Below are positions 10,089-29,189 of a DNA stretch of 64,000 nt, piece after piece (the first letter of the stretch is position 1; each line of letters starts with the position of its first letter). The translations under genes were made by a program, and so were the position numbers. The DNA lies in contig CAVPXM010000054.1 of assembly GCA_963709405.1 (NCBI GenBank), positions 32,881-96,880 on the forward strand, given 5' to 3'. The stretch comes from an uncultured Nitrososphaerales archaeon. Lineage in GTDB: Archaea > Thermoproteota > Nitrososphaeria > Nitrososphaerales > Nitrososphaeraceae. Under the pieces are notes generated by a model. It made no database searches and was not told the DNA's origin. It was given only the letters and a program-made list of their open reading frames with translations.

Positions 10089-11083
10089 TTACACAGATAG
10101 GTTACATTTTTGATTACCTACATGGGTTACACTTTGCTGCTTGTTCTTGTACGTACGGTGGATGTAATTAATCTTTAGAAACATCTCTGATGGAGTAAGG
10201 CCATTTATTCCTCCATGTTCTCTGGTTTCGTTATATGCTTTAACAAAGATATCATATCTTATTTTACCATCATCTGTGTTTGGTATATCCTCAACTGCTA
10301 AAAACTCATTCTTTACTATCTTGTTATATGCTTCTACCTTTCGTTGTAACTGTGGATAGGAATTGGGTATTTGCTTATCCTTTATCTGATTGTGTACAAG
10401 AAAACGTCTAAATATTTTGGATGTAAACTGTTTTCGATTATCATGCATTATCTTTCTGGGCTTGCCATTAATGATTATCCATTCTTCCAGTACGTTAATA
10501 ACATCTACTGACCTCTTTCTTTCAGACCACTTGCTAGCTACTTTTCTTGAACAATCGTCCAGACAGCTAATGATGTAATTCCTTTGACTAGAATTACTCA
10601 GATAGAAAGGTCCAAGGATATCCAACTGCGCACCTGTACCATATCGTTAGGTCGTTTCATTGCAAACCTTTTGTATATTTTATTATTCCTTGTCTTACAG
10701 TTTAGAACATTTAGACCATGTCTCTTTAGTATCTTGTATAAAGTTCGAGTGCTTAATGAGATTCCAACAACCTTTCTTAATCTAAACTTGATCCTATTAC
10801 ATCCAAATCTCTTGGTTAATCGTAGATCAAGTATTGTCTCCTGTATTTCAGATGTTATCTTCTTGTACTTGATATTATGAGGTCTTCTTGAGTTATCGGA
10901 TAGACCTTCTGTTCCTTTATGTTCATATCTCTTATTCCATTTGTAATACGTCTTCCTGGAGACACTATACTTTTTACAAATATTGCTTATGGTGTCACCA
11001 GTCCATTCTTTTTCGTGGATTAGGTTGAATCTAGTTATGATTTCTATATGTATACACTTCCTGACAGCAGAAGTGTAACCCAT
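10089..11083 (-). pseudogene. IS481 transposase, frameshifted near 10625
   Basis: HTH (SRKTYYKWNKRY..GLSDNSRRPH) and DDE core (QMDILGPF, DDCSR, KVEAYNK); short insertion relative to copy 2. Confidence 0.88.
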
Positions 11084-11159
11084 GTCTGTAATCCATGTGA
11101 ACTATTTTAAGGATTTCTGTTTTTCTTAATCTTAGTATAGTTCACCTCTGTTTACATAC

Positions 11160-11295
11160 ACATCCAGTAGTTTTTTCGGATAGTAATCCATTCGAGGCTC
11201 ACCCTCACTACCGTCTTTATCCATTTGTTAAGGAGATGCCACAGTTAGCTAATCGAGGCTTCACCCTCATACAGACAGTCGTGGTTAACACCTTA
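11160..11295 (-). ncRNA. Predicted bridge/seek RNA of the IS1111-type element
   Basis: Two GAGGGTGA(A)GCCTC hairpins each flanked by segments matching target (TGTCTGTA, TAGCTA) or donor (ATGGATTA) junctions; RNA ends approximate. Confidence 0.75.
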
Positions 11296-11329
11296 ACTAT
11301 AATGATAATAATAATTGAATTAATCATCA

Positions 11330-12388
11330 TCATCCTAACCTCTCATACATTCGTCTTTCTTTCATAATCCAATAAGCAACCTTCAGCAATTTGGCTGCAG
11401 CAGCTACAGCAGCTTTAGAATTACCTTTCTTTTTTGCTATTCTATAATAGAACTGAGCTATGTTACTATTCTTTTCAGTGCGAATATGTGCGTGAACACA
11501 TTCTAGCATTATCCATCGTAAGTATTTGCTACCTGCCTTTGTTATGCTGCTTCCATAATGTGTTACTCCACCAGAACTATGTGTTGATGGTACTAGACCT
11601 GCGTACGAACACAAGTGGTACGAATCAGGAAACCTATTGATATCTCCAATTTCACTAACGATTAACAAAGCTGAATAATATCCAATACCTGGAATCGTCA
11701 TCAGTAATTTAGCGATCTCATCTTCTTTAGCAAGCAGTAGTATCCTCTTAGATACAGTATTAACTTCATCATTCAACGATTTAATAACACGAAGACAACC
11801 ATTAATTCTATAATCATCATATCCTTCTAGTTTATCCATATTCCTTCTGGTAAATGTACTGGTACGATCGACATCTGAGGCCTCTATACCCTTCATAAGC
11901 GTAATGCTATGTACCTTATTCTTTAGTTTAGTTCTCATTCTTACAAGTGCGGATCTATGCCTAACAATGTCTCGTAGTTCCATTATTCTTTTGTTTGGAA
12001 CATAGCATTCAGCTATGTATCCTCCTCTCAGTAGATCAGCTAATTTAACCGCATCAAGTTTGTCGGTCTTTATTTTGGCCGAGGCAATAGCTCTTGTCTT
12101 GGTTGGATTGGATAATCGTATATCTAGGTGTCTCTTTCTCAAGCATTCATAAATGTTGTACCACATACCAGACGATTCCATTACGACCTTAGCGTTATTG
12201 CCTGGACTGAGACTATCGAAGAATTCATTCACTTTTATCAGGTTATTGTCTACTCTAGAATTATCCAGTACCTTTCCTTTTTCGTCAAGAACGGCTACCT
12301 GTAGATAGTTCTTGTGAACATCCATTCCCACAAACATACTCTTCTTACATACGCTACCGTCTGCTTTAGACTTACATAATTCGTTCAC
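11330..12388 (-). CDS. IS110-family DEDD recombinase/transposase, apparently intact
   Basis: GMDVHK, VVMES, KTDKLDA, TIPGIG, SEIGDINRF, YAGLVPSTHSSGG (catalytic Ser), GSKYLR; alternative ATG start at 12337. Confidence 0.95.
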   Translation of the reverse strand: MNELCKSKADGSVCKKSMFVGMDVHKNYLQVAVLDEKGKVLDNSRVDNNLIKVNEFFDSLSPGNNAKVVMESSGMWYNIYECLRKRHLDIRLSNPTKTRAIASAKIKTDKLDAVKLADLLRGGYIAECYVPNKRIMELRDIVRHRSALVRMRTKLKNKVHSITLMKGIEASDVDRTSTFTRRNMDKLEGYDDYRINGCLRVIKSLNDEVNTVSKRILLLAKEDEIAKLLMTIPGIGYYSALLIVSEIGDINRFPDSYHLCSYAGLVPSTHSSGGVTHYGSSITKAGSKYLRWIMLECVHAHIRTEKNSNIAQFYYRIAKKKGNSKAAVAAAAKLLKVAYWIMKERRMYERLG

Positions 12389-12546
12389 ATATAGTTAGCT
12401 ATAATGTCACCTATGTTAGGAAGTACAACAGCTAACCAAACCAATTTATCGTGTGCTATCCACAAGTACTATCATTGTATTTAGATTTCAATCTAAATCT
12501 AATAACAGCTTGCCACGACAAATAACTCGATACTAATTAACGTATT

Positions 12547-12592
12547 CTATATATTCTATATAGTAGTATATAGTGCTATTAGATATATATAG
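12547..12592 (+). promoter_or_regulatory. Five-unit CTATATAG-like array upstream of the 12614 gene
   Basis: ctatatat 12547, ctatatag 12556, gtatatag 12566, ctattaga 12576, atatatag 12585. Confidence 0.6.
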
Positions 12593-12613
12593 GTAGTTTG
12601 TTGATACTTAGAT

Positions 12614-13078
12614 ATGATAGAATCATCTACAGAAAAAATATTTCCAAAAGATAATAACGTAAAGATAGAGCAAACAAGGAGCCAAAATGATGATAAGATG
12701 GTTCAAAAGTCACTTACAAATGAAACTGGACTTACGATTATTCAATTATCCCGACAGATTAAGGATCTTGACAAGAAAAACACAAGAATAGAAGAACTAC
12801 TTTCATCTATCAAGAAAGACATTAAGAATGTAGTACTGGCCATAAAGGACAGTCAACAACTCGCATCAGACGGAGCAACTAGAATGAAGGAATTTCACGA
12901 TCAGATAGCTCAATTACAAATGCAAACACAAAAAATTGAACAGGTTATTAATGACGACTCTGTGTCTAAAAAATCAAAGAAAGTTAAGAAAGATAAGAAA
13001 GATAAGAAGCAGAGTAATAAGGAAAAGGATAAGAAAAGCAAGAAGAAAGCAAAAAGTATGAAGAAAAAACAGAAGTAA
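12614..13078 (+). CDS. Coiled-coil protein with Lys-rich C-terminal tail
   Basis: Heptad-like core; tail KKSKKVKKDKKDKKQSNKEKDKKSKKKAKSMKKKQK. Confidence 0.75.
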   Translation: MIESSTEKIFPKDNNVKIEQTRSQNDDKMVQKSLTNETGLTIIQLSRQIKDLDKKNTRIEELLSSIKKDIKNVVLAIKDSQQLASDGATRMKEFHDQIAQLQMQTQKIEQVINDDSVSKKSKKVKKDKKDKKQSNKEKDKKSKKKAKSMKKKQK

Positions 13079-26442: not shown

Positions 26443-27480
26443 TGTTGTACTTACACAGATAGGTTACATTTTTGATTACCTACATGGGTTACACTTTGCT
26501 GCTTGTTATTGTACATACTGTGGATGTAATTAATTCTTTGTAGAAACATCTCTGATGGAGTAAGACCATTAATCCCTCCGTGTTCTCTAGTTTCGTTGTA
26601 GGCTTTTACAAAGATATCATATCTTAGTTTTCCATCATTTATGTTTGGTATATCTTCTATTGCTAGGAACTCATTCTTCACTATCTTGTTATATGCTTCC
26701 ACTTTACCCTGAAGCTGCGGATAGCGATTTGGTATTCGTTTATCCTTTATCTGATTGTGTACAAGGAAATGTCTGAATATGTTAGATGTAAACTGCTTTC
26801 CACTATCATGCATTACTCTATCAGGTTTGCCGTTGATCACTATCCAATCCTCTAATACATTAAGAACATCTACTGACCTCTTCCTTTCAGACCATCTGCT
26901 AGCTACTTTTCTTGAACAGTCGTCTAGGCAGCTAATGATGTAATTCCTTTGACTAGAATTACTCAGATAGAAAGGGCCAAGGATATCCATCTGTACCATC
27001 TCATTTGGATGCTTCATGACAAACCGTTTGTAAGTTCTTGTTTTGGCCTTACACTTGAGGATATTAAGCCCATGTCTCTTTAGTATCTTGTATATGGTTC
27101 TGGTGCTTAATGAGATTCCAATAACCTTTCTCAATCTAAACTTGATCCTGCTGTACATCCAAACCTTTTGGTTAATCGTAGATCAAGTATTGTCTCCTGT
27201 ATTTCAGATGTTATCTTCTTGTACTTGATATTATGAGGTCTTCTTGAGTTATCGGATAGACCTTCTATCCCTTTCTGTTTGTATCTGTTATTCCACTTGT
27301 AGTAAGTCTTTCTGGATACACCGTATCTTTTACAAATATTAGATACTGTATCACCAGTCCATTCTTTCTCATGTGTTAGATTAAACCTTGTATTGATTTC
27401 TATATGGATTCACTTCCTGACAGCAGAAGTGTAACCCATCTGTGTAAGCTATAATGTCACCTATGTTAGGAAGTACAACA
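26443..27480 (-). mobile_element. IS481-family element copy 2 (transposase disrupted)
   Basis: TGTTGTACTT / AAGTACAACA IRs; perfect 6-bp TSD ATTACT (26437-26442, 27481-27486); DDE ORF 26451-27158 with the HTH part out of frame. Confidence 0.93.
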
Positions 27481-28098: not shown

Positions 28099-29189
28099 TT
28101 AGTGTTGGATCCTCTTAAGTTTTGTTTCGTATAGGCCAATCTTTCTTTCATTGTATAGTTTCTTGTATGTTAGCATATGCCACATTATAGTGCATATCTT
28201 ATTTGCAACATGTGTTATTGCAATGTGACGCCCATGTCTTTTGGCCAGCCTTAGATAGAATTTCCTTAATCTACTGTCAGTTCTAGATGCAGTATTGGCT
28301 GCTTCAATTAATATCCATCTTACCTTTTTATTACCATCTTTCATCCTTCCCATATACAATGGGTTTCCAGATTGATGTACTGATGGACATAATCCAGCCC
28401 ATGATACAAGTTTTTGAGGTGAACTAAATCTGTTAATATCGCCAATTTCAGATGATATCATCATTGCAGAGAAATAATTTATTCCTGTCATACTCATCAA
28501 TATTTTAACTGATTCATTATTTGATGCGTCTATCCTTTCTTTGATTCAATATTTTTGATCTCTGTAGTAAGAAATTCAATCTGCTCAATGTACTCATGCA
28601 GCAAAATCTGGTCATTGCCAGTTACTTTTAGATCCCTTAGCCATTGTAATCCCTTTATTCCAAATATCTTGGAATAATTAAAGTTCATATCATCATATTT
28701 ATCAAGTAATGAATGTGTTCTATTAATTACTCTGGTTCTATCCTGTACCAAATTTGTTCTTAGCCTGAGTAATGACCTATCTCCTCTAGTCTCTCTGTCT
28801 GCAATGTAACATTCAGCTACAACAAGATCTGATCTAAGTAGATGTGCAAGTGTTCTAGCATCAAGTTTATCGGTCTTTATTATTCTTGCCTCAGCAATGG
28901 CCTTAGTTTTCAAAGGATTAGCCAGTTTAACATCAATATTATGTTTCTCAAATGCCTGGTATGTCTTTAGCCAAAGGTTACCTGTAGATTCACAGACTGC
29001 TTTAGACATACCATCACCATGCTTCCTCTTAATGGATGAAGCAAATGATTCAGCTTGTTCCAACGTATTATTGTAATTGGTTTCTTTGATTATGGAACCA
29101 TTCGAATCCATTATACAAACTACACAATTCCGTTTTCCAATATCTACTCCTATATAGTTCAGTGATCCTTTCTTTTTCCTATGTGGTAT
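28099..29189 (-). pseudogene. IS110-family recombinase, frameshifted near 28530
   Basis: YIGVDIGK, VCESTG, KTDKLDA, SEIGDINRF, WAGLCPSVHQSG; GGAGGTGA SD followed by ATA at 29189. Confidence 0.9.

Follow-up and report, generated by a model that had tools for sequence, protein, structure and literature searches.

The closest described relatives of the element reported here are IS621 and the IS1111-group seekRNA elements ISEc11, ISPa11, ISKpn4, and ISPst6. As portrayed in the accessible portions of the source papers, IS621 uses a two-loop RNA in which each loop reads both strands of one DNA partner (PMC11208160; PMC11208158), and the four IS1111-group elements have a long noncoding region downstream of the gene, subterminal repeats, the protein motif G-L-x-P-x4-S-G, and a site of their own for each lineage (PMC11187229). 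Within the same limits of the sources, bridge RNAs have been predicted in the right end of 93% of the ISfinder IS1111 entries, the IS1111 family is stated to be abundant in bacteria and archaea (PMC11187229), a survey preprint contains 662 archaeal IS110 recombinases (10.1101/2024.06.21.599552), ISHvo9 and ISHvo10 are archaeal IS110-family entries on record, and a preprint of 2026 groups the bridge RNA loci of bacterial and archaeal genomes into clusters. The accessible portions of this literature contain no archaeal element with guide RNA, target, and donor laid out, and supplements (e.g., Supplementary Table 5 of PMC11208160) may list some. Here, we describe an intact IS1111-group insertion sequence of the IS110 family in an archaeon of the Nitrososphaeraceae (soil ammonia oxidizers). 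It lies in a 64,000-nt stretch of DNA, hereafter the window (GenBank assembly GCA_963709405.1, contig CAVPXM010000054.1, positions 32,881 to 96,880), and very probably encodes a DEDD/Ser recombinase together with a two-loop guide RNA that reads both the target and the element's own ends. The element is a new example of a known mechanism and leaves the picture of how such elements work unchanged; what it adds is a corrected crossover, a natural retargeting series, and one unexplained motif.

The locus was compared with both models as far as the accessible portions of the papers describe them. It shares with the four IS1111-group elements the downstream noncoding region, the subterminal repeats, the protein motif, and the lineage-specific site, and its predicted RNA likewise has the top-strand-complementary segment 5′ of the bottom-strand one, the two overlapping at the insertion point (PMC11187229). 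It differs from them in its archaeal host and, as far as its own consensus fold shows, in its two near-identical modules with 10+10-nt loops and its legible donor loop. With IS621 it shares the protein domains, the aligned catalytic residues, handshake-type guide extensions, and a two-loop RNA in which each loop would read both strands of one DNA partner (PMC11208160; PMC11208158). IS621 has a CT core with a nearly invariant T and a tolerant first base (PMC11208160; PMC11208158); the crossover T is likewise conserved here, with a tolerant base before it. In contrast to IS621, the RNA lies 3′ of the gene instead of 5′, the order of the loop strands is reversed, only a single nucleotide is common to target and donor, and there are 8-bp subterminal repeats. 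The extensions here also stand on the strands that carry sense sequence, and would thus pair with the bottom strand, whereas in IS621 it is the top-strand-pairing guides that carry them.

The source genome comprises 4.83 Mb in 100 contigs with 37% G+C, and a full-length match to the archaeal small-subunit rRNA model (1,506 bits) confirmed that it is archaeal. In what follows, L-numbers denote homologous loci, G-numbers genomes (G000 being the window's own), and C-numbers contigs; all coordinates are those of the window. The whole element occupies 11091 to 12397 on the minus strand and is about 1,306 bp long, with the insert proper at 11092 to 12396 and a shared T (A on the plus strand) at both 11091 and 12397. 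Its left end (12383 to 12396) consists of the extension AACTAT (12396 to 12391) followed by the subterminal inverted repeat ATGTGAAC (12390 to 12383), which is kept in all homologues compared, and its right end (11092 to 11102) of the repeat GTTCACAT (11102 to 11095) followed by the extension GGA (11094 to 11092). On the plus strand, the inverted 8-mers thus read ATGTGAAC at 11095 to 11102 and GTTCACAT at 12383 to 12390. Elements of the IS1111 group have subterminal inverted repeats of 7 to 17 bp with short extensions and a longer noncoding region downstream of the gene than upstream. Here, the repeats are 8 bp, the extensions reach 6 nt (left) and 3 nt (right) from the crossover, and 238 nt (11092 to 11329) lie downstream of the gene, compared with 8 nt upstream if the gene starts at GTG 12388 or 59 nt if it starts at ATG 12337.

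The recombinase gene (11330 to 12388, minus strand) is an open frame of 352 amino acids counted from GTG 12388. Its product matched PF01548 (DEDD_Tnp_IS110; 6.8e-27) and PF02371 (Transposase_20; 6.1e-24), both over the gathering scores, as well as NF033542, "IS110 family RNA-guided transposase" (245 bits against a cutoff of 140). A phmmer search against solved structures found the IS621 recombinase (8wt6_A; E value, 1.1e-14), and D23, E71, D109, D112, and S272 align with the conserved D, E, D, D, and E-S-G serine of IS621, of which S241 is the named catalytic serine in the accessible portions of the structural papers (PMC11208160; PMC11208158). The C-terminal IS1111 motif GL-P----S(t)G is present in the translation as G-L-V-P-S-T-H-S-S-G. 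Together with the anatomy of the ends, these matches bear out the original prediction of an IS1111-type element with an intact recombinase. The part that can be aligned with IS621 begins at M18 (ATG 12337), from which the protein has 335 amino acids, so that against the 330 to 350 residues typical of the group it measures 352 from the GTG and 335 from M18. The relatives preserve the frame upstream of M18 (at 10 of 10 loci, the distance from the internal motif described below to the ATG equals 1 modulo 3), and translation may therefore begin at the GTG, which falls within the left inverted repeat. Almost all of the roughly 20 best matches to the protein were archaeal, including Nitrososphaerales, Nitrosopumilaceae, Nitrosotalea, Hadesarchaea, Archaeoglobi, Bathyarchaeia, and Thermoplasmata, and the closest intact relative was found in G023, a genome of the same family.

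Ten relatives have a pair of short hairpins in common downstream of the gene, spaced by about 61 nt. In the window, the two are near-identical and read GAGGCTTCACCCTC (11255 to 11268) and GAGGCTCACCCTC (11194 to 11206) on the plus strand. An RNAalifold consensus of 10 homologues gave 27 base pairs in five helices, which were placed on the window by their coordinates: an outer stem of 7 bp (P1, 11291 to 11297 with 11227 to 11233), two basal stems of 5 bp (P2, 11280 to 11284 with 11239 to 11243; P4, 11218 to 11222 with 11178 to 11182), and two capping hairpins of 5 bp (P3, 11254 to 11269; P5, 11193 to 11207). A covariance model, R1, was built from this 10-sequence alignment, and consensus and model delimit a predicted bridge or seek RNA scaffold of 123 nt on the minus strand (11175 to 11297, with the 5′ end at 11297). 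As judged from the aligned sequences, the 3′ noncoding RNA is predicted to comprise two modules of the same build, each with a basal stem, a 10+10-nt internal loop, and a capping hairpin. The two-loop RNA with a duplicated hairpin that had been proposed from the window alone thus held when the fold was checked across relatives.

R1 scored 138 bits at this element. It also located the RNA immediately downstream of the gene three times on a Nitrosopumilaceae chromosome (73 to 75 bits), twice in another Nitrososphaeria genome (49 to 52 bits), and in a Thermoplasmata genome (43 bits), and it matched a decayed relic in the genome of the window itself. In an alignment of 15 sequences (14 of them distinct), 96.8% of the cells in the 27 pairs were paired, compared with 86.6% after shuffling and 30 to 45% when the structure was slid, and 15 of the 27 pairs had changes on both sides, a count reached by none of 500 shuffles. 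The single-sequence fold of 11092 to 11329 had a z score of −2.1, which is weak alone. A third hairpin in the 3′ tail (11092 to 11175), suggested by that fold, was ruled out, as RNAalifold on eight tails returned no pairs. Further afield, R1 had no match at E values up to 10 in two bacterial plasmid homologues and one haloarchaeal homologue (L147 to L149), and among 18 other distant loci it gave weak matches only, in Thermoplasmata (L059; E value, 0.07) and Hadesarchaea (L053; E value, 0.3). The relic in the window's own genome (L007; contig C69, 12386 to 12582) is a decayed RNA of another guide lineage with both capping hairpins damaged. Its first guide (the 5′ strand of loop 1) exactly complements the right flank of L022 and L024, which themselves have one mismatch to that flank.

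The short repeats in this region might instead act as DNA, either as protein-binding repeats or as leftovers of old junctions, with no guide RNA at all. Expression of the RNA is something we infer, Rfam had no matching family (E values up to 1 in 10800 to 12700), and the subterminal repeats together with a third, GTGAAC-like copy in the tail (11140 to 11149) could be protein sites. We consider this highly improbable, because 14 distinct sequences show compensating changes in five helices, a sign of selection on an RNA fold, the recombinase belongs to an RNA-guided family, and complementary and identical strands that overlap at the crossover are the arrangement demonstrated experimentally for the IS1111 and IS621 RNAs. 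The tail copy, AGAGGTGAAC on the minus strand, lies inside the element and repeats the GTGAAC half of the left repeat, and is able to pair with the right repeat. In the same tail, GAGGTGAA is kept in five of the eight sequences compared, with no consensus fold found by RNAalifold.

The reading of the RNA as a guide rests on what its loops match. In the predicted target loop (loop 1), the 5′ strand (11270 to 11279, minus strand) includes the 8 nt TGTCTGTA (11277 to 11270), complementary to the sense strand immediately right of the crossover (11090 to 11083). Seen on the plus strand, TGTCTGTA stands at 11083 to 11090 and its reverse complement TACAGACA at 11270 to 11277, a guide match of 8/8. 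The 3′ strand of the same loop (11244 to 11253, minus strand) reads ATTAGCTAAC, that is, the left flank TAGC, the shared T, and the first 3 nt of the left end (AAC), and the 9-nt AGTTAGCTA at 11243 to 11251 accordingly recurs at 12393 to 12401. In the predicted donor loop (loop 2), the 3′ strand (11183 to 11192, minus strand) reads AATGGATTAC and comprises the last 5 nt of the right end (ATGGA), the shared T, and the first 3 nt of the right flank (TAC); TAATCCAT is found both at 11184 to 11191 and at 11089 to 11096. Every letter match listed in the original prediction was present where it had been placed.

Matches of 8 to 9 nt are short, and in a genome with 37% G+C they could in principle be chance. 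We compared the three matches (two to the target and one to an end) with 200,000 mononucleotide shuffles of 11092 to 11329. The reverse complement of 11083 to 11090 arose 706 times, the identity with 12393 to 12401 arose 222 times, and that with 11089 to 11096 arose 2,343 times, yet at least two of the three occurred together in only 12 shuffles. The same positions also match different flanks in six guide lineages. Chance is therefore almost certainly not the explanation. Over those six lineages, the right-flank guide had a cognate sum of 35/48 and the left-flank guide one of 26/30, each reached by 2 of 720 permutations. Across relatives, the loop strands covary with their own flanks and ends, and the covariation expected at the outset was seen for three of the four loop strands. 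In L018, the fit includes one G-T pair. The variation that bears on the extension of loop 1 is confined to L049 and L097, in which AAT replaces AAC both where the left end starts and in the final 3 nt of the loop 1 strand. Three loci on one Nitrosopumilaceae chromosome (L051, L064, and L079) have a common left flank, ATTATGCA-T, and similar right flanks (A..TCTATT).

In the donor loop, the right-end guide matches 6/6 in eight of nine elements, among them L019, where a compensating change has both the end and the guide reading ATAGAT instead of ATGGAT. The 3-nt extension of this strand equals the flank in this element, L018, L019, and L021 and agrees at 1 or 2 of 3 positions in the other five. 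In the element described here, both 3′ strands correspond to the two product junctions over 9 nt and differ from their own substrates at the base following the T. In IS621, as the accessible portions of the papers have it, handshake guides carry extensions that match the partner DNA after exchange (PMC11208160; PMC11208158), and the 3-nt extensions here appear to fit the same logic. The handshake-like matches past the core that had been noticed from the window thus stand as product junctions in this element, and in loop 2 they do not carry over to the majority of its relatives.

The fourth guide, the 5′ strand of loop 2 (11208 to 11217, minus strand; AAGACGGTAG), is weak, as already remarked when the locus was first read. 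Its middle pair with the left end covaries (A-T in L019, U-A in L021, and G-C in L022), the strand pairs 6/6 in L051, and the fit to the left end is better in L021 and L051 than here. An alternative register, in which GTAGT beside the hairpin pairs with ACTAT, fits in this element. However, changes in L021, L022, L024, and L045 break that pairing, and we therefore prefer the register ACNGT.

The position of the crossover follows from the host of the element, which is itself an IS481-like insertion sequence in the same orientation. The first 33 nt of the host (12398 to 12430, minus strand; sense TGTTGTAC...ATAGC) were severed by the insertion from the remainder (10089 to 11090, minus strand), in which the start codon comes 7 nt after the crossover. 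The host gene is split into two overlapping frames, 10598 to 11083 (161 amino acids) and 10089 to 10625 (178 amino acids), which match positions 2 to 134 and 144 to 284 of the IS481 profile NF033577 and contain helix-turn-helix (HTH) and rve domains. About 40 copies of the host element were found in the genome, with 37 uninterrupted 5′ regions by pattern search and outer flanks that are often YTAR. The roughly 40 uninterrupted copies read TAGC-T-TACAGACA or close variants with constant spacing, and the same 33 to 38 nt precede the unoccupied site in other host copies. The sister lineage (L019 and relics) shows a single T as well, as in two related genomes the sequence is ...GTAC-T-TAC... at 18 of 18 uninterrupted copies. 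Metagenome contigs from two public DNA sequencing runs join 11090 directly to 12397, skipping exactly 1,306 bases, with one letter that fits both sides.

From the unoccupied sites and the skipped contigs, we conclude that a single T is common to site and element. The original prediction had placed a TA core here. The letters TA do occur at both junctions, but at nonequivalent positions, a coincidence of neighboring letters. A TA core would need a site 1 nt shorter than all copies seen and a skip of 1,307 bases with two letters fitting both sides, and it was rejected. The circle junction changes with it. Instead of ATGGAT-TA-ACTATA, which carries one more T, a single shared T predicts ...ATGGA-T-AACTAT... 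(...CACATGGA-T-AACTATATG... at greater length). No joint of right end to left end was present among the contigs listed, which is uninformative, as contigs drop rare forms. Immediately before the T, the target has C in five of six lineages, and the donor has A or G.

The predicted 13-nt site occurs 22 times in the genome, and all 22 occurrences are in the host element (0.2 expected from composition). With the site inside a multicopy host, each host copy becomes a landing pad. Elements of IS4321/IS5075, which are of IS1111 type, reportedly use a specific site in the end of another mobile element. As there, each copy of another mobile element is a target, whereas the host here is an archaeal IS481-like insertion sequence and two positions in it are used by sister lineages. 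These two positions fall in the first 45 nt of the host, one at its terminus and the other 33 nt inside. With only one intact copy in the genome, we used relics and relatives to assess site fidelity. Among the relics in the genome, those on contigs C42 and C18 occupy the same site, and those on C44, C60, and C82 occupy the sister site at the host terminus.

By analogy with IS621 and the IS1111 seekRNAs, the noncoding region would be transcribed and processed to the predicted RNA, the recombinase would bind it, and a circular form of the element (right end, T, left end) would recombine with TAGC-T-TACAGACA at the shared T, the order of strand exchange presumably being that of the model systems. 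Loop 1 would serve as the target loop, its 5′ strand pairing with the sense strand right of the crossover and its 3′ strand, which has the sense of the left flank, the T, and the first 3 nt of the left end, pairing with the opposite strand. Loop 2 would serve as the donor loop, with a 3′ strand that has the sense of the right end, the T, and 3 nt that here equal the right target flank, and with a 5′ strand that would pair weakly with the left-end extension.

Several results weigh against this mechanism or its generality. The permutation figures overstate independence because the elements are related, and the 15-sequence alignment was fitted to R1, which favors structure. The first guide of L048 matches at 1 of 8 positions in register and fits only when shifted by 1 nt, that of L021 matches at 4 of 8 and needs a 1-nt bulge, and L022 and L024 share one C-C mismatch. 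The right flanks of L051, L064, and L079 fit the first guide poorly and only with a 1-nt bulge, and the first guide does not fit in L049 and L097, of which L049 fits neither flank and L097 fits by the 3′ strand only. In loop 2, the product-junction extension holds in only 4 of 9 elements, and the fourth guide, with ACGGT facing the left-end ACTAT, makes three Watson-Crick pairs, one G-T pair, and one mismatch. The RNA libraries leave room for doubt as well. Four contigs from two libraries of one study (runs X18 and X19, with 0.13 and 0.09 of sampled words, respectively) overlap parts of the element at 11221 to 11447, 12121 to 12343, 11087 to 11158, and 12027 to 12398 with 90 to 99% likeness; DNA carry-over is possible, and neither a transcript nor its ends or strand can be read from these contigs. 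The two from run X19, at 11087 to 11158 and 12027 to 12398, come from related elements that continue into different flanks. In one, the left junction is that of the sister lineage, at the host-element terminus, and in the other, the right flank has only TACA in common with the one here.

The genome also contains only one intact copy and about 15 decayed fragments even though 22 perfect sites are free, and the activity of the element may be low or lost. This copy could thus be stranded and no longer mobile, its matches being the record of a past insertion. The imbalance between intact and decayed copies and the unoccupied perfect sites both favor such a history, as do the stop codons in several relatives and the splitting of the occupied host-element gene itself into two frames. 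Set against these, the recombinase frame is open with all catalytic residues present, the guides match the flanks 8/8 and 9/9, all five helices are intact, and the relative L018, with 87% protein identity, is also intact. A stranded copy is a real possibility, if a clearly less probable one, and we favor an element with a working recombinase and guide RNA that may still be mobile.

Sister elements combine the two halves of the target guide differently. This element, L019, and the hybrid L018 match different positions or variants of the host element. As the natural relatives reveal which letters change with the site, they supply a design table for a retargeting test. We also considered, as a tentative and rather unlikely extension, an archaeal bridge-recombinase lineage that retargets in nature, its differing guide halves hinting at a running contest between two insertion sequences, and that carries two further features, an internal copy of a donor-strand motif and an outward TATA-like box. 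Both would be features not described for the bacterial models. The motif, AGACGGTAG (12354 to 12362, minus strand), lies in the N-terminal extension of the recombinase and is the same in sense as the 5′ strand of loop 2 over 9 nt. Motif and strand share a longest common substring of 9 to 10 nt in 5 of 10 lineages and change together in L019, L022, L048, and L051; their cognate sum is 71, compared with a mean of 53 for random pairings, of which 19 of 100,000 reach 71 (kinship ignored). The same nucleotides also encode a conserved Asp-Gly. Lying inside the 5′ coding region, the motif would, if the extension is right, be an RNA-mimicking autoregulatory operator or an extra donor contact; coding constraint is a third candidate explanation.

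The candidate outward archaeal TATA-like box is an A/T stretch (11103 to 11112, minus strand; sense CCTTAAAATA) a few nucleotides before the right-end repeat, and its role as a junction promoter is a guess. A box of the TTTAA type is kept in the alignment of eight tails and also in L051 and L079. In the circle, the recombinase GTG would follow the box at a distance of about 28 nt, as the host-element ATG would in the integrated form.

With a protein of 335 to 352 amino acids and an RNA of 123 nt, the element offers a compact, legible example of RNA-guided recombination from ammonia-oxidizing archaea and a starting point for asking whether a mechanism derived from bacteria holds in archaea. An insertion sequence that lives only inside another also bears on how damage to small archaeal genomes is limited.

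Elsewhere in the window, a second, distant IS110-family gene (28099 to 29111, minus strand; 36 to 45% identity by tblastn) is broken into frames of 133 and 193 amino acids, and R1 found no RNA beside it. The window also holds a second, uninterrupted copy of the host element, whose site at 27439 to 27451 (minus strand) reads TAGC-T-TACACAGA. This site differs from the target of the element described here at 2 of 8 right-flank positions and matches the hybrid guides of L018 exactly.

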